From assembly GCA_965223855.1 (NCBI GenBank), contig CBDCXM010000003.1:96028-160027 (forward strand): a DNA stretch of 64,000 bases, given 5' to 3'. Within the stretch, counting starts at the first letter, position 1, and every line of letters begins with the position of its first letter. This DNA comes from Candidatus Multivoradales bacterium (GTDB lineage Bacteria > Acidobacteriota > Thermoanaerobaculia > Multivoradales > JAHEKO01). Shown here in pieces: positions 5,554 through 58,268 of the stretch. Below the pieces are notes generated by a model. That model worked only from the letters and a program-made list of their open reading frames with translations, searched no databases and was not told the DNA's origin. Both the position numbers and the translations under genes were made by a program.

Positions 5554-6771
5554 ATGCAGCATCTTCGATTCCTCGCCGAACTCGCCCGAGAGGCGGACTC
5601 GAAGATCGTCCTGCTGATCCTCGACGGTGTCGGCGACCTTCGCACCGAGGCACAGCCACAGACGGCGCTCGACCTCGCCTCCACCCCCAACCTCGATGCT
5701 CTCGCAGCAAGGGGCGCGCTGGGTCGGATGATCCCGGTGCTGCCGGGAGTCACGCCCGGCTCCGGCCCGGGGCATCTCGGCCTCTTCGGCTACGACCCGG
5801 CCCTGCCGCAGTTCGACATCGGGCGGGGCGTGCTCGAAGCGCTCGGCCTCGGCCTCGCCTTCGGTGCGCGTGACCTCCTCGCACGCGGCAACTTCGCCAC
5901 CGCGGACAGCGACGGTCATCTGACCGATCGACGCGCGGGCCGGATCCCCACCTCCGAATGCGAGCGTCTCTGCGCCCGGATCAACGACGCGATCGGCGAG
6001 GTTGCGGGGATGAGGGTTCGCGTGGCGCCCGGCGAGAGCCACCGCTTCGTCCTGGTCCTCGAGGGGAGAGGCCTGCGCTCGGAACTCGCGGACACCGATC
6101 CCCAGCAGCTCGGCGTTCCGCCGCTCGCCCCCGAGGCTCAGACCCCCGAGGCCGAGGAAACCGCCGAACGAGTCGCCGAGGTCGTCGCCGCCCTCGACGC
6201 CGTCATCGCCGACGAGCCACAGGCGAACCGGGTGCTCCTGAGGGGCTTCTCGAAGATGCCCGAGATTCCGCAGATGCCGGAGCTCTACCGGATGCGCTGC
6301 GGCGCCTTCGCCGGCTATCCGCTCTACCGCGGCGTCGCCTCGGCCTGCGGCATGGAGGTGGTCGAGTGCGGCAAGCACCTCGACGAGGTCGTCGCTGCGG
6401 TACGCGAGCGCTGGGAGGACTTCGACTACTTCTTCCTCCACATCAAGCAGACCGACGCCGCGGGCGAGGACGGCGATCTGCGCAAGAAGGCGGACGTTCT
6501 CAAGGAGGTCGACGGCCACCTTCCCGATCTGCTCGCCCTCGAACCGGACGTGCTCGCCGTCACCGGCGACCACTCGACGCCGGCGCTGATGGCGGCGCAT
6601 TCGTGGCATCCGATTCCGCTGCTGCTGGCAGGGCCGCTCGTTTTCGTCGACGAGACTTCGGCTTTCGACGAGGGGCAAGCGATCCGGGGCCATCTCGGGG
6701 TGCTCAAGTCTCGCGAGCTGATGGGCCTGCTGTTGGCCCACGCCGGCAGGCTCGCCAAGTTCGGCGCCTGA
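5554..6771 (+). CDS. apgM: cofactor-independent phosphoglycerate mutase (ApgM type)
   Basis: KIVLLILDGVGD, TPNLDALA, PGSGPGHLGLFGYDP, HIKQTDAAGEDGD, VTGDHSTP, HSWHP; SD GGAGG upstream. Confidence 0.9.
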   Translation: MQHLRFLAELAREADSKIVLLILDGVGDLRTEAQPQTALDLASTPNLDALAARGALGRMIPVLPGVTPGSGPGHLGLFGYDPALPQFDIGRGVLEALGLGLAFGARDLLARGNFATADSDGHLTDRRAGRIPTSECERLCARINDAIGEVAGMRVRVAPGESHRFVLVLEGRGLRSELADTDPQQLGVPPLAPEAQTPEAEETAERVAEVVAALDAVIADEPQANRVLLRGFSKMPEIPQMPELYRMRCGAFAGYPLYRGVASACGMEVVECGKHLDEVVAAVRERWEDFDYFFLHIKQTDAAGEDGDLRKKADVLKEVDGHLPDLLALEPDVLAVTGDHSTPALMAAHSWHPIPLLLAGPLVFVDETSAFDEGQAIRGHLGVLKSRELMGLLLAHAGRLAKFGA

Positions 6772-6786
6772 CCCTACTCGCGGGGA

Positions 6787-6954
6787 GGCGAAGAGAGATC
6801 CTGGCGACTCAGCAGGGGGCTCTTCGCCGGGGCGACAAGTAGGAATCCGCAGTCAGAAGTCGATGGCGCCCCAGGCGAAGCGCAGGGAGCCACAACGCCA
6901 TCCTCCGACCGATGGCTCCCGGCCCCTGGGGAGTCGCCAGGATCTCTCTTCGCC
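6787..6954 (-). repeat. structured intergenic element, copy 1 (three-way junction closed by a 24 bp perfect inverted repeat)
   Basis: 6787-6810 is the exact reverse complement of 6931-6954; internal core homologous to copy 2. Confidence 0.85.
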
Positions 6955-7031
6955 GTTCGGTCTCGGGCTGAAGCGTTGACGAGGCTGAACTCGGCGTTCG
7001 CTGCTCGCGCCAACCTCGGAGACTCGAAGCC

Positions 7032-7196
7032 GGAGGACAGAGACGCCAAGGGTCGCCAGGGGCCGGGAGCCGTCAGTCGGTGGGCGGTGGACCGGCTCCC
7101 TGCGCTTCGCCTCGGGCGCCACCGTTGCAGGACTGCAGGGGTCCGAGTGTCGCCCTGGCGAAGAGCCCCCTGGCACCCTTGGAGCCCCTGTCCTCC
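7032..7196 (+). repeat. structured intergenic element, copy 2 (inverted relative to copy 1)
   Basis: Core CCAGGGGCC-GGGAGCC..GGCTCCC-TGCG-CTTCGCC..GGCGAAG-A-GCCCCCTG shared with copy 1; different outer stem (GGAGGACAG/CTGTCCTCC, CCAAGGGT/ACCCTTGG). Confidence 0.85.
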
Positions 7197-7279
7197 TGCG
7201 ATCGACGCACCGCAGCAGTTCCCTGCCCACGCCGCTTCGCGTGGGAACCTCCTCAGCGAGGGGGTGTAGAAAACGCGGT

Positions 7280-7834
7280 CTACCGGAAGCCGCGCCGCAG
7301 TTCCTGGCGGAACGTGGTGAACGCGTCCTCTCCGTAGAGGACGACGACCACCCGGTCGAGCTTGGTGCCGCCCTGCAGGTAGCGGTGGATCTCCGTGAGG
7401 GTGACGCGGGCACAGCGGTCGAACGGGAAGCCGAAGGCGCCGGTCGAAATCGCCGGCAGGGCGATCGACTTGAGACCGTGGCGGTCGGCGAGAGCGAGCG
7501 ACGCCCGGACCGCGGAGGCGAGCTTGCGATCTTCGTCACCTTCGCCCTTCTTCGGGCCGACGGCATGGATGACGTGGCGCGCGGAGAGCTCCCCGGCGCC
7601 GGTCAGCACGGCCGTGCCTACAGCGGTTCCACCGATGCGGTCGCATTCGTTCTGGATCGCCTCGCCGGCCTTCTTGAGAATGGCGCCGGCGACTCCTCCG
7701 CCGAGCTTCAGCTCTTCATTGGCGGCATTGACGATGGCATCGACCGTCAGCTCGGTAATGTCTCCTTCGAGGAGCTCGAGCTGGGCCGAATCCATCCGGA
7801 TGGTGATATGTCGGGTCTCGGTCGTCTGAGCCAT
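7280..7834 (-). CDS. macro domain protein (O-acetyl-ADP-ribose deacetylase/ADP-ribose binding, YmdB-like)
   Basis: GDIT, DAIVNAAN, GGGVAGAI, VIHAVGP, LPAISTGAFGFP. Confidence 0.92.
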   Translation of the reverse strand: MAQTTETRHITIRMDSAQLELLEGDITELTVDAIVNAANEELKLGGGVAGAILKKAGEAIQNECDRIGGTAVGTAVLTGAGELSARHVIHAVGPKKGEGDEDRKLASAVRASLALADRHGLKSIALPAISTGAFGFPFDRCARVTLTEIHRYLQGGTKLDRVVVVLYGEDAFTTFRQELRRGFR

Positions 7835-7992: not shown

Positions 7993-9912
7993 GTGCTGAC
8001 AGAACTCAAGCAGGAATTGCGTCACCACGTGGCCCGGCGCGTTCGGGAGCTCTACGACCTCGAGCATGAGCCGGTGGTCGAGGTGCCGCCGCGCCGTGAT
8101 CTCGGGGACTTCGCCTTCCCCGTGGGTCTCCACCTGGCGCGAGAGCTCAAGCGCAACCCGCGCCAGATCGGCGAGGAGATCGCGAACGGCCTCGAGCTGC
8201 CCGACATCGTCGTCGAGACCCGGGTGGAAGGGGCGGGCTACGTCAACGTCTTCCTCGATCGTTCGCGGATTGCGGCGGGACTGCTCGAAGCGCCTGTCCT
8301 CGAGAAGCCGGGCGAGCCGCTGCCCAAGGTGGTGGTCGAGCACACGAACATCAACCCCAACAAGGCGGCGCACATCGGCCACCTGCGCAACTCGGTGCTC
8401 GGGGACGTGCTGGCGAAGGTCCTCCAGACGCTCGGGCACCCGGTCGAGATCCAGAACTACATCGACGACACCGGCGTTCAGGTCGCTGACGTCGTCGTCG
8501 GATTCTGCGACCTGCGTGGGATGGGTGCCGACGATATTGCCGCGCTGCCGGAGCCTTTCGACTACACCTGCTGGGATCTCTACGCCGAGGTCGGCCGCTG
8601 GTACGAGGAGGATCCGACGCGCCAGGAGCTGCGTCGAAGCACGCTCCACGAGCTCGAGTCGGGCGAGGGGGAACGGGCAGAGATCGGCCGGCTGGTAGCG
8701 AGCCGCATCGTGCTGCGCCATCTCGCGACGATGGCGCGCCTCGGGATCGACTATCACCTTCTGACCCACGAGAGCGCGATCCTCGAGCTCGACTTCTTCG
8801 CCGACGCCTTCGAGCGGCTGAAGGAGAGCGGCGCCGTGCGGCTCGAGACCGACGGCAAGAACGAAGGATGCTGGGTGATGCCGCTCTCCCAGAGCGAGGA
8901 GTTTCAGGGCCTCGAGGACCCCGACAAGGTGATCGTCCGCTCCGACGGCACCGTCACCTACGTCGGCAAGGACATCGCCTACCAGATGTGGAAACTCGGG
9001 GTCCTGGGGCGGGACTTCGGCTACCGCTTCTGGGACGAGGCCAAGCTGTGGCAGACCGTCGCCGACGGCGTGGTCGAGCACCCCGAGTTCGGGGGCGGCC
9101 ACACGGTCATCAACGTCATCGACGCGCGCCAGAGCTACCTGCAGAAGATCGTGCGCGCCGGCGTCGAGGCGGTCGGTCACCCGGAGGAGGCGGAGCGCTC
9201 GATCCACTTCGCCTACGAGTTCGTCTCGCTCTCCGCCGCCACGGCGCGGCAGCTCGGCTTCCTCGGCGACGACGACGAGGGGGAGAGCCTCGAGATGTCG
9301 GGCCGCAAGGGGATCGGAGTCAAGGCGGACGATCTGATCGACCAGCTCGAAGCGAAGAGCCGGGAAGAGATCGCGAGCCGCAACCGCGACCTCGCGGACG
9401 AAGAGCTCGACGCCCTCGCTCACGACATCGCGGTGGCGGCGATCCGTTTCTTCATGACCAAGGCGACCACGACCCGCACCATCGCCTTCGACATCGACGA
9501 GGCGCTCGCCTTCGAGGGGGAATCGGGCCCCTACCTGCAGTACTCGATGGTGCGGGCGCGCAACATCCGGCGCAAGCTCGAGGAGGCCGGGCTCTCCTCA
9601 GACGTCACCGGCGGCGAGATGGCGGCGCTGGCGCCCGAGGTGTGGAGCGACGACCTGTGGAATCTGGTGCTGGCGGTCGGGCACTGCCAGGAGAAGGTCG
9701 CGGCGACCGGTGAGACGCTCGAGCTGTCGATCGTCGCCCGCCATGCGCTCGACCTCGCGCAGCAGTTCAACGGGCTCTACCACAAGCACCCGATCCTCCA
9801 CGAGGAGGACGAGGCGCTGCGAATCGCGAGGCTCGGGGTCACCCGGATCTTCGGTCGCGGCCTCGCCGCAATGACTGAGCTGCTCGGCATCCCGCTGCCG
9901 CAGCGGATGTAG
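7993..9912 (+). CDS. argS: arginine--tRNA ligase
   Basis: GYVNVFL, EHTNINPNKAAHIGHLRN (HIGH), RSDGTVTYVGKDIAY, MSGRKG, GESGPYLQYS. Confidence 0.95.
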   Translation: MLTELKQELRHHVARRVRELYDLEHEPVVEVPPRRDLGDFAFPVGLHLARELKRNPRQIGEEIANGLELPDIVVETRVEGAGYVNVFLDRSRIAAGLLEAPVLEKPGEPLPKVVVEHTNINPNKAAHIGHLRNSVLGDVLAKVLQTLGHPVEIQNYIDDTGVQVADVVVGFCDLRGMGADDIAALPEPFDYTCWDLYAEVGRWYEEDPTRQELRRSTLHELESGEGERAEIGRLVASRIVLRHLATMARLGIDYHLLTHESAILELDFFADAFERLKESGAVRLETDGKNEGCWVMPLSQSEEFQGLEDPDKVIVRSDGTVTYVGKDIAYQMWKLGVLGRDFGYRFWDEAKLWQTVADGVVEHPEFGGGHTVINVIDARQSYLQKIVRAGVEAVGHPEEAERSIHFAYEFVSLSAATARQLGFLGDDDEGESLEMSGRKGIGVKADDLIDQLEAKSREEIASRNRDLADEELDALAHDIAVAAIRFFMTKATTTRTIAFDIDEALAFEGESGPYLQYSMVRARNIRRKLEEAGLSSDVTGGEMAALAPEVWSDDLWNLVLAVGHCQEKVAATGETLELSIVARHALDLAQQFNGLYHKHPILHEEDEALRIARLGVTRIFGRGLAAMTELLGIPLPQRM

Positions 9913-26714: not shown

Positions 26715-28086
26715 CGGCCGCCTCCGACAGGTTCTCGACGAGGCGCTGGAAATGATCCCCTCGGGCGGCGAAATTGGCGTACTGGTCGAAGCTCGCACAG
26801 GCCGGCGACAGCAGCACGACGTCGCCCGCGCGTGCGCGAGCCGCGGCCGAGGCGACGGCGGCCTCCAGATCGCCGGCCATCTCCCACGGTGCCGCCTCGC
26901 CGAGCGCCGACGCCAGCTCGGACGCCGATTCGCCGATCAGGTAGAGCCTCGTCGCCTTCGCCCTTACCAACTCTTCCAGTTCGGTGACGGAAGCACCCTT
27001 GCCCCGGCCACCGAGGATCAAGTGCACGCTGCCGTCGGCGAACCCTTCCAGCGAACGGGCGGTCGCTCCGACATTGGTGCCCTTGGAGTCGTCGAACCAG
27101 CGCACCCCTGCCCGGTCGCGCACCATCTGCAGCCGGTGCGGCAGCGCGCGGAACTGTGCGAGACCGGCGCCGAGCGCTTCGACCTCGGTACCGACAGCGC
27201 GCGCCAGGAGCGCCGACGCCATCGCGTTCTCGAGGTTGTGCGGACCCGGCACCGGCACGTCGCCGACGGCGAACATCGTTCGGGGCCTCACTCCGGGCTC
27301 CACCTCGACCACCCTGTCGCCGTCGACGTAGCAGCCGTCGCCGACCGCACCGCGGCGTGAGAAGTAACGACGACGCGGTGCCAGTTCCTCTCCGGAAAAC
27401 CGCTCGACGAGAGGATCGTCCGCGTTGAGCACCGCGACGTCGGACGGTTCCTGACGAGCGAAGATGCGCGCCTTGGCACGCCCGTAGGCGTCGAGATCGC
27501 CGTGTCGATCGAGGTGGTCGGGCGACAGGTTTAGGAACGCCGCCGCCCGCGGGCGGAACGTATCGACCGACTCGAGTTGAAAGCTGGAGAGCTCGGCGAC
27601 GTAGACCTCACCCCCCTCCTCCACACAGTCGATCAGCGGTCGGCCGAAGTTTCCGCAGACCACCGCCCGGCGACCCGAAGCGTCGATCATCGCGCCGGTC
27701 ATCGCAGTGGTCGTGCTCTTGCCGTTCGAACCGGTAATCGCGAGGATCGGCGCCTCCACGAACGGGAAGGCGAGCTCGATCTCGCCGACGACCGGTAGCG
27801 AACGGCGTTTCGCCTCCAGGAGGAGGTCGCGCTCGCTCGGCACGCCTGGGCTGACGACGATCCCGTCGACATCTCCCGGCAGCTCTTCGAGTTGTGCTGC
27901 GCTCACCGCCTCGAAGCGCGGATCCTCGGCCCACTCGCCGAGCTCGAGCTGGTCGAGTGGTCGGTCGTCGACACCGAGCACGCGGACCTCCCTCCTCAGC
28001 AGGAAACGTGCGACCGCAGTGCCGCTGACGCCGAGTCCGTAGACCAGCACCCGGTTCCACTCCCCCTCTGACCAGGGCGTCTTCAT
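26707..28086 (-). CDS. murD: UDP-MurNAc-L-Ala--D-glutamate ligase
   Basis: [39 protein letters not shown]. Confidence 0.95.
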
Positions 28087-56515: not shown

Positions 56516-57430
56516 CTAGCTCGGTGGGACAGGCGCCGGCTGATAACTCGGTGGTCGGAAGCAACCAAGCGGAAAGACGACATCGAGGCCCTTGCGGAAG
56601 TCGGCAGAGGCTGCGCGGTACTCGAGCACGAACCAGCGGTAACCCTCTTCGAGCGCCTGGCGCACGGCGGGCTCGATGGCGTGGAACCTCGGCGCAGGTG
56701 ACCGCTCGAACGATTCGGGACGATCGTGAGGGTGCTGCGCGAGGATCGCCCTTCGGCCGAGAACTGGTTTGCCGGTGGCTTCGTGCTCGAGTTCGATCTG
56801 CTTCACCATGCCTCGCACTCGCTCGCGGATCTCATCCTTCTCCAGGTGGTCCCAGCAAGGCAGTGGCGTGAGCTCGAGTGTGTGCTGCGACGAGAAGAGT
56901 CCGGCCGCCCTCGGCTCGCCTCGCCGGAACGCACGATATTGCTCGGAGCGATCGATCCACTCTCCCGACATCGTCTCTCCTGCAAGCAGCGCATGCGTGC
57001 TCGTGGCGCCGGGCCAGTGCCGCGGCGAGGCGACTAGACGCTCCTTGACTCCCTGCTCAAGCAGGTACCTTAGTCGCCCTTCCTCGGCTGCGGGCTCCTC
57101 GCTGACGTCGATGGCGGCATGGCGCCGGCCCCAGAACTTCTCCTTCCAGTCGTGGAGCCGCCCGACCTCCCTGGCGACGTTCGAGTTGGCGTAGGCCATG
57201 AAGTCGGCGAGCTGCTGCACGTTCTCAGGCCTCAGCAGCAGGTGCGCGTGGTTCGACATGTAGACGAACGCGCACACCCTCATCCCGGTTCGCGCCTGGG
57301 CCCTCGCAAGAATGCCGACGACGCGATCGCGGACTTTGTCGGAAGGTCTGAGCAGATATCCGCCGTGAACCGTCCGCACAGTGACCTCGACAAGCCTCTC
57401 CTCGGGCAGGTAGCGCAGCTTTCTAGACAT
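56516..57430 (-). mobile_element. RAYT/IS200-like HUH (Y1) transposase
   Basis: VEVTVRT, AFVYMSNHAHLLL (HUH), FWGRRH, RLRYLLEQGVKERLV..WPG (candidate catalytic Tyr). Confidence 0.85.
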
Positions 57431-57503
57431 CCACCCCAGCAGACGGAACCTGGCAGCCGCTTCTTGCACCATTCGCCTGGCACCCGGATAACATCCCGCC
57501 CGC

Positions 57504-58268
57504 ATGTTCCCCCTCCGCGACGACAACCCCACTCGCTCCACCCCTTACGTCACGTTCGCGATCGTCGCGGTGAACGTCTTCGCCTGGCTATTCGTCCAGC
57601 GGGCCGGCCTCGACGCGGCGTTCCTGCGCTCGCTGTGTGACCTGGCGGCGATTCCGGCGGACCTGAGCGGGCGGATCGGGCCGGGGACGACGATCGAACT
57701 CGGCGAGGGGATGGCGTGCGAGGTCGGCGGGCGTGGATGGCTGACGGTGCTGACGTCGATGTTTCTGCACGGAGGCTGGATGCACCTGATCGGCAACCTC
57801 TGGTTCCTGTGGATCTTCGGCAACAACATCGAAGACGCGATGGGACCGGTGCGGTTCATCGCCTTCTACCTCCTGACCGGCGTGCTGGCGACCGGCGCGC
57901 ACGTGCTCTCCGACCCGGCGAGCGCGGTGCCAACCGTAGGCGCATCAGGGGCGATCAGCGGTGTCATGGGCGCCTACCTGATCCTCTACCCGAAGGTCAG
58001 AGTGCAGACACTGTTCATCCTCTTCCTTTTCGTCCGGGTGTTCGCCCTGCCGGCATGGGTCGTTCTCGCGGAGTGGATCGTCATCCAGACATTCTCCGGC
58101 TTCGCCAGCCTCGGCTCGACGGGAGGCGGGGTCGCCTTCTGGGCGCACATCGGCGGCTTCGTCGCCGGGGCAGCTCTCATCAAACTGTTCGCGAAGCGGG
58201 AGCGGGTGACCCGCTTCCGCGACACCCGCCACGGCGTGCCGGCGCGCTGGCAGCGCTTCTCCCGCTGA
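57504..58268 (+). CDS. rhomboid intramembrane serine protease
   Basis: TSMFLHGGWMHLIGNLWFLWIFG, GASGAI, AHIGGF. Confidence 0.93.
   Translation: MFPLRDDNPTRSTPYVTFAIVAVNVFAWLFVQRAGLDAAFLRSLCDLAAIPADLSGRIGPGTTIELGEGMACEVGGRGWLTVLTSMFLHGGWMHLIGNLWFLWIFGNNIEDAMGPVRFIAFYLLTGVLATGAHVLSDPASAVPTVGASGAISGVMGAYLILYPKVRVQTLFILFLFVRVFALPAWVVLAEWIVIQTFSGFASLGSTGGGVAFWAHIGGFVAGAALIKLFAKRERVTRFRDTRHGVPARWQRFSR

Follow-up and report, generated by a model that had tools for sequence, protein, structure and literature searches.

We analysed a stretch of 64,000 nucleotides from a Candidatus Multivoradales bacterium (hereafter the window). In the window, a spacer of 508 nt separates an apgM-like gene (PF10143, 5362-6771) from the Macro-domain gene that converges on it (minus strand, 7280-7834). 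As shown in Table 1, two mutually inverted elements occupy this spacer, and each of the convergent genes has one element downstream. The cores of the two copies are inverted repeats of each other, matching at 82% over 72 nt and at 96% over 25 nt, and the alignment of copy 1 with copy 2 spans 184 columns with a mean column identity of 82%. A first-pass annotation, made from the letters of the window alone, had described two inverted homologous elements between these genes; the inverted arms, the core matches and the Pfam assignments confirm this description.

Table 1. Features of the two elements in the apgM-macro spacer. The strand is the orientation of the covariance model and not a functional strand; R2 is the second covariance model (see text).
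Feature	Positions	Strand	Basis or remark
Copy 1, whole element (outer stem and three-way-junction core)	6787..6954	-	inverted arms, fold, R2 108.1 bits
Copy 1 core, 120 nt	6811..6930	-	alignment, structure given to model, model hits
Copy 1 P1	6923-6928/6813-6818	-	
Copy 1 hairpin P2	6913-6920/6885-6892	-	loop 1, 6893-6912
Copy 1 hairpin P3	6864-6883/6819-6837	-	loop 2, 6838-6863
Spacer between copies, 74 nt	6955..7028	.	copies head-to-head in model orientation; read from sequence
Copy 2, whole element	7029..7199	+	inverted arms, fold z -5.7, R2 97.2 bits
Copy 2 core, 120 nt	7055..7174	+	alignment, model hits, sequence
Copy 2 P1	7057-7062/7167-7172	+	
Copy 2 hairpin P2	7065-7072/7093-7100	+	loop 1, 7073-7092
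Copy 2 hairpin P3	7102-7121/7148-7166	+	loop 2, 7122-7147

Both copies share one architecture: an outer stem, a 6-bp P1, and the hairpins P2 and P3, which join P1 at a three-way junction. The arms of copy 1 (6787-6818/6923-6954) are 32 nt long and 94% complementary, and they fold with 24 consecutive outer pairs. Those of copy 2 (7029-7063/7165-7199) are 35 nt long and 77% complementary. When the elements were folded as RNA on the strand used in the first-pass annotation, the minimum free energies were -116.3 kcal/mol for copy 1 (z -8.0) and -112.7 kcal/mol for copy 2 (z -5.7), and 0 of 200 shuffles was as stable in either case. Thus, the three-way-junction fold that had been proposed is upheld for both copies. 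The A-T to G-C compensatory change ascribed to the first hairpin is present, and the equal loop lengths (20 and 26 nt) are true of both copies and are largely kept in the family described below. The outer stems had been said to pair in both copies while being largely different in sequence. The pairing stands, including the 24 consecutive pairs of copy 1. "Largely different" is too simple, since the outer stems of the window copies still align at about 60%, and in most other genomes the outer stems are common between copies.

We found no promoter-like site at the window copies or in the 74-nt spacer between them, and no T-run terminator at the window copies; a single terminator-like match lies inside the outer stem of copy 1 (1 versus 0.5 in shuffles). 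A small hairpin with a 7-bp stem and a 6-nt loop (7226-7245) is located 34 nt past the stop of the macro gene. Thirteen nucleotides of it (7233-7245) are 92% complementary to 6870-6882 of copy 1, and this hairpin may represent a terminator or else a piece of the element. Four runs consist of contigs from one sample; of these contigs, one spans the element region identically and is perhaps its source, the rest break inside, and no joint skips the element; this has no bearing on expression or excision.

Copies in related genomes

The first-pass annotation had suggested that further copies be sought by BLAST. Together with covariance models, such searches yielded one more copy in the window's genome and tens in relatives. 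The third copy of the window's genome is located at G000:C8:189183-189358. BLAST, nhmmer and the first covariance model (R1) agree on it, and by all three methods this genome contains three copies and no more. The outer stem of the third copy is 31 bp long and its sequence is unrelated to those of the window copies. Compared with the window copies, three compensatory changes are present in P1 and two in P3.

Full-length matches to R1 were obtained in 11 of 101 related genomes, the window's own counted; this model matched two genomes of the same order, G075 and G070, further to the one in the phylum sample below. A second covariance model (R2) was then trained on 33 copies from the R1 matches. 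Of the 45 genomes in the window's taxonomic family, 34 contained the element according to R2, and the matches across these 34 genomes number more than 500. When G005, an unpublished genome that is counted in this tally only, is set aside, the figure is 33 of 44. In the 45-genome search, the highest copy numbers were 68 (G028), 52 (G038), 40 (G018), 39 (G030), 33 (G015) and 30 (G009); a separate search of three genomes gave 70 copies for G028, 28 for G022 and 16 for G017. Many R2 matches are found at contig ends, as expected because repeats break assemblies. Four other genomes of the window's genus contained 0 copies by R2. Where two copies form a pair, about 10 pairs (at least 10) are arranged tail-to-tail, 3 are direct and 1, the window pair, is head-to-head.

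An even sample of the phylum contained the element in 4 of 151 genomes: the window's own, two others from its family and one from its order. A strict two-block pattern occurred at 58 places in a named genome collection. All of these places are in metagenome-assembled genomes (MAGs), labelled Thermoanaerobaculia, Acidobacteriota/Acidobacteria or "uncultured bacterium". By and large, the element is limited to a single bacterial family of Thermoanaerobaculia (Acidobacteriota). The window region had no BLAST match in phage and plasmid collections. Six matches of the two-block pattern on viral contigs were all rejected by the model; this negative result is weak because the pattern recovers only 34 of 115 known copies.

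When positions 6500-7500 of the window were compared with Rfam 15 (E up to 10), the best match was VA RNA with 17.6 bits against a gathering score of 62. The same comparison for 18 loci of other genomes (E up to 0.1) gave nothing on the element and only a TPP riboswitch and two tRNAs outside it. Thus, a match to a known Rfam family, which had been named as grounds for denying novelty, is not seen at or near the gathering score. In the parts of the literature on Acidobacteria/Thermoanaerobaculia repeats, MITEs and noncoding RNA that we drew on, no description was found, although the repeat lists in the supplements of PMC3733652 might hold relatives. Both searches agree with the initial statement that the element belongs to no named family.

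Conserved structure and covariation

The unit is about 170-260 nt long and is composed of an outer stem of 20-45 bp and the 120-nt core. In some lineages, a short conserved tail is added on one side. In 103 of 111 copies the core is 119-126 nt long; the length of loop 2 is 24-27 nt in 110 of 111 and that of loop 1 is 19-27 nt in 105 of 111. As exceptions in length, four G022 copies (L154, L163, L167) possess an insertion of ~30 nt in loop 1, which gives cores of 151-153 nt, and two unusually long cores from G028 measure 142 nt and 169 nt. Single nucleotides at the junction are nearly invariant and are kept across genera while the stems change. The loops had been described as variable in sequence and fixed in length. 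The fixed lengths hold; free variation does not, because loop 1 possesses a GACT-type motif that is conserved across genera, and a related motif caps the hairpin formed within loop 2.

A covariation check, as proposed in the first-pass annotation, was made on copies aligned to the model. Among 113 distinct copies, 82.2% of the pair cells are standard, compared with 62.9% after shuffling of partners and 32-53% with slid partners. Double changes occur at 28 of the 31 core pairs in these 113 copies, and 0 of 500 shuffles reach the observed values; in the first 33 copies, 26 of 31 pairs already showed double changes. Within single genomes, 60 compensatory events were counted. The alignment used was fitted to the model and hence favours the structure, and we consider the signal to be real because of the slide control and the many pair types. 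Covariation supports the earlier suggestion that selection acts on the structure. However, it is not proof of an RNA, because arm-to-arm repair in a DNA palindrome also yields compensatory changes; RNA, single-stranded DNA and such repair are not separated by it.

Two further structural proposals did not survive comparison with the other copies. A kissing interaction between loops 1 and 2 had been suggested from five complementary positions. All five pairs are present in 2 of 113 distinct copies, namely the window copies, and the complementarity of the two loops is no better than chance (mean longest run 6.25, versus 6.24 in shuffled loops). The GCGAAGC mini-hairpin noted on the opposite strand is found in 9 of 111 copies.

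The paired arms have a median of about 49 aligned nt (110 copies). Within G028, G009, G033 and G075, the outer stems are common to the copies and thus belong to the repeated unit, and in G075 and G033 the copies moreover have in common a short tail on the far side of the 3' arm. In G017 and in the window's genome, the outer stems are copy-specific in sequence, yet they are paired. Insertion into host palindromes was considered as the source of copy-specific outer stems and is not supported in G028, G009, G033 and G075.

Strand, placement and mobility

Strand preference was assessed by the mismatches that a given strand tolerates. On the modelled strand, G-U is less frequent than A-C in core cells (66 versus 155), in outer-stem cells (196 versus 262) and among single changes within genomes (12 versus 25). 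The outer stem of G028 contains fixed C-A oppositions, which become G-U when the other strand is read. By RNAfold, the opposite strand is the more stable one in 49 of 110 copies, with 0 of 7 in G033 and 14 of 22 in G022. Because the strand tests and the searches for promoters and terminators disagree or are negative, no strand or type of molecule is singled out.

Genes adjoining the copies were called with a purpose-made codon-usage caller. Of 115 placed copies, 38 are flanked by convergent genes and 15 by divergent ones; among those in co-directional spacers, 14 are in the sense and 15 in the antisense orientation. A further 32 have no called gene on one side and 1 lies inside a doubtful gene call. 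Pfam families were assigned to 112 of the 129 nearest called genes. Their functions are varied and of the housekeeping type, and include ribosomal proteins, tRNA synthetases, enolase, LexA and topoisomerase. There is a single DDE transposase fragment, and genes for Y1, TnpB, IS110, reverse transcriptase or integrase number 0 among the 129. A cruder neighbour set agrees with this result (20 of 71 ORFs with families, none mobile). The element shows no linkage to any neighbour gene.

Individual copies lie near known RNA features: one in G017 (L170 1641-1734) is 19 nt from a tRNA gene, and about 150 nt separate one in G015 (L071 1245-1346) from the TPP riboswitch that lies upstream of thiC. The spacers of genus g16 contain a second abundant repeat module, a short hairpin that starts with GGTTGAGG and is followed by runs of short GGGC-N-TAGGGG-like repeats. 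This module is present at L144 1230-1500 and 8830-8980, in L132, L141 and L145-L147 (G028), and in the syntenic spacers of G019, G042 and G035. It often adjoins the three-way-junction element, and the resulting mosaic recalls BIMEs. Matches of G019 to L144 1306-1590 define a recurrent variant, which comprises only one half of the element together with the neighbouring module and stops mid-core; this variant may be a related chimeric repeat.

Presence of the element differs between related species. The apgM-macro spacer is 36, 53 and 115 nt long in three genomes of the same genus, as compared with about 508 nt in the window; a fourth matched the locus only in part. Therefore, either the window pair is an insertion or the short spacers are deletions. 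In the same spacer, one genome of this genus, G004 (L063; about 8996-9110 of G004:C57), has its own tandem duplication of ~50 nt. In genus g16, G019, G042 and G035 all lack one copy of G028 in the syntenic spacer. Another G028 copy occurs in G019, where it has a deletion in P2, and is missing in G042 and G035.

The ends of the unit are sharp in G033, where 22 BLAST matches comprise the query, its palindromic self-match, 18 full-length matches and 2 partial ones, with no arm-only pair enclosing a gene. In within-genome alignments, no target-site duplication is visible at the ends. The ends are not fixed to the base by empty sites in other species, because identity to the available relatives is 70-85% and other repeats are present in their spacers. 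The alignments, the G033 BLAST matches and the 129 neighbours yielded neither a mobilising enzyme nor a parent insertion sequence that shares the ends of the unit.

One copy is orthologous between G022 and G030, where it lies between peptidase M49 and zincin genes. Its core is 71% identical, compared with 41% for the adjoining spacer and 77-81% for the genes; the stems and the junction are almost unchanged and the loops have diverged. Together with the paired stems of old copies in G017 and the window's genome, this copy suggests maintenance in place, which a purely selfish relic would not need. However, the apparent maintenance could also arise by ascertainment, as decayed copies escape the model, or by arm-to-arm repair. 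The conservation is of limited weight because it concerns a single pair and because the model detects intact copies only.

The window also encodes a protein with a Y1_Tnp domain (ORF 56516-57541, minus strand; PF01797, E 2.7e-7), and the first-pass annotation had proposed a non-autonomous mobile element of the REP/REPIN type and had called this protein a RAYT. The window's genome has 16 Y1_Tnp matches, and 37 of the 45 family genomes have at least one. Several Y1_Tnp frames of this genome agree in length (317 aa) and in the section of the profile that they match, which suggests a multi-copy gene of the IS200-like or TIRYT-like type. No copy of the element lies near ORF 56516-57541 and no related inverted repeats flank it; the only other R2 match in the window is at 26847-26900, with 13.6 bits and E 0.93. 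In four high-copy genomes, 0 of 16 Y1_Tnp loci have a copy within 1.5 kb (best 14 bits, E 0.55). When PF01797 matches alone were compared with copy counts across the 45 genomes, G015, G025 and G031 had 0 Y1_Tnp matches but 33, 20 and 13 copies, and G002, G006 and G012 had 10, 6 and 6 Y1_Tnp matches but 0 copies. The complement of GTAG is present in loop 1 of some lineages (G028, G022) and not in others, including the window. Di Nocera and colleagues describe acidobacterial Y1 transposases with their own flanking repeats in the part of PMC3733652 used here; these are a separate matter, because our element is unlinked to Y1_Tnp by locus or count. Thus, of the earlier proposal, the broad sense is retained, since the element is multi-copy, dispersed, lineage-restricted and variable in presence, and the REP/REPIN-RAYT mechanism is not.

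Known repeat systems and alternative readings

The REP/REPIN sequences of Enterobacteria and Pseudomonas, which are associated with RAYT transposases, are likewise multi-copy intergenic palindromes, which frequently form inverted dimers, are restricted to lineages and are thought to act as single-stranded DNA hairpins, as described in the part of PMC3733652 drawn on here. Our element resembles them in its inverted dimers, in its copy number of up to 70 per genome and in its intergenic position. In contrast, the REP unit is 20-40 nt long and the present unit 170-260 nt, the present core is branched with two inner hairpins, no GTAG/CGTC tag is conserved, and there is neither adjacency to Y1 genes nor co-variation of their counts. 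Bacterial MITEs, for example Correia elements, are short, non-coding and intergenic, have inverted ends, differ in presence between relatives and carry no gene of their own, according to the portion of PMC11602168 cited here. Our family likewise consists of short, non-coding elements that occur in many copies and end in inverted repeats. Unlike in MITEs, however, the arms run up to the core, so that the whole unit is a hairpin, and the core covaries; moreover, neither a target-site duplication nor a parent insertion sequence was found for it. The element fails the defining tests of REPINs, and no parent element or target duplication of the classical MITE type was seen in the within-genome alignments and BLAST matches.

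ERIC/IRU, BOX and RUP are imperfect palindromes of 100-200 nt that occur between genes in either orientation and can fold when co-transcribed. The present family is like them in these traits; it is not known to be related to them in sequence, its host phylum is another one, and it differs in its conserved three-way junction with near-invariant junction nucleotides. The HEARO/omega RNA of IscB and TnpB and the IS110 bridge RNA adjoin the gene of the protein that uses them. They share with our element a conserved, covarying structure in a multi-copy mobile setting; however, no such gene is present among the Pfam-matched neighbours (112 of 129; 20 of 71 ORFs in the cruder set), and no Rfam model matches. 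As compared by arrangement, integron attC sites form same-orientation arrays between cassettes, whereas the present copies are scattered over the chromosome, in both orientations, among housekeeping genes.

The two elements belong to a family of branched palindromic repeats that is non-coding, dispersed in genomes and, to judge from our searches, undescribed. We consider these repeats to be probably non-autonomous, structure-dependent and selfish, of the MITE/REPIN/ERIC kind. According to this proposal, the element would multiply within genomes and land in intergenic DNA, mostly between convergent genes, and only copies with pairing stems and retained junction and loop nucleotides would remain recognisable. 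The fold would form in single-stranded nucleic acid, that is, in DNA at replication or transposition, or in RNA on read-through from neighbour genes. The conserved unpaired nucleotides may be recognised by a trans-acting enzyme encoded elsewhere, and the window pair would have been inserted into a short apgM-macro spacer. A further reading, which we regard as unlikely, is that the element is more than selfish DNA, namely a structure-selected module whose three-way junction and conserved loop nucleotides are under purifying selection at orthologous loci; a protein with its gene elsewhere in these genomes would bind the module in the form of RNA or of single-stranded DNA.

It is possible, although we judge it rather improbable, that the host uses the element in cis, the long hairpin of the transcript serving at mRNA 3' ends as an exonuclease barrier, a terminator or an RNase III site, or insulating convergent genes from each other. 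This use is compatible with a mobile origin. It would fit the position of 38 of the 82 copies with genes called on both sides, which lie between convergent genes, as well as the location of one window copy downstream of each gene, the excess of core over spacer identity in G022/G030 and the outer stems that are still paired in old, diverged copies. However, sense and antisense copies are equally frequent in co-directional spacers (14 and 15), T-run terminators are absent at the window copies and the single terminator-like match there is at chance level, neither strand is consistently more stable (the opposite one wins in 49 of 110 copies), and genomes of the same genus do without the element at the same locus. 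Moreover, the conservation comes from one orthologous pair and is biased to intact copies.

The first-pass annotation had also suggested a structured RNA, ribozyme- or guide-like. Each copy would then be a small RNA gene acting in trans, in which variable loops are displayed on a fixed three-way-junction scaffold and which works as a guide, as a ribozyme or by binding a protein. Strong covariation, conserved loop lengths, the junction nucleotides and the GACT-type loop motif are as such a gene would have them, and without an Rfam match the RNA would be new. We nevertheless hold this to be very unlikely: up to 70 copies occur per genome, the window copies have no promoter-like or terminator signal, no orientation or consistent strand preference is seen, G-U is no more frequent than A-C when the modelled strand is read, the loop-loop pairing fails, and no Rfam ribozyme model matches and no protein is linked. 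The junction strands, we presume, do not fit hammerhead-type cores. Still less credible is a strict REPIN, in which paired REP-like hairpins would be mobilised by RAYT/TIRYT-type Y1 transposases such as ORF 56516-57541. The Y1_Tnp ORF of the window, the 16 matches in its genome, the occurrence of such genes in 37 of 45 family genomes and the commonness of inverted dimers speak for it, as do the acidobacterial Y1 transposases with flanking repeats in the part of PMC3733652 referred to above. The absence of copies by Y1_Tnp loci, the unrelated counts and the lack of a conserved GTAG tag speak against it. Finally, a decayed local inverted duplication without wider meaning, the outcome that the annotation had set against its own proposal, would agree with the mere three copies of the window's genome. 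With more than 500 model matches in 34 genomes, and with the covariation, we give it practically no chance.

If the reading as a structure-selected module is true, the element would be a new multi-copy scaffold, which might act in RNA processing, in insulating convergent transcription or as the branched substrate that a recombinase needs. As a repeat family, it explains contig breaks in Thermoanaerobaculia assemblies, and it is a warning that an RNA gene is not proved by covariation when the repeats are palindromic. The enzyme that recognises the branched hairpin would be one other than the usual suspect, Y1/RAYT. With the covariance model, the element can be annotated or masked, and strains could be told apart by its presence or absence. 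A class of Acidobacteriota that has been little studied and is mostly uncultured thereby gains a well-defined repeat family with strong covariation.
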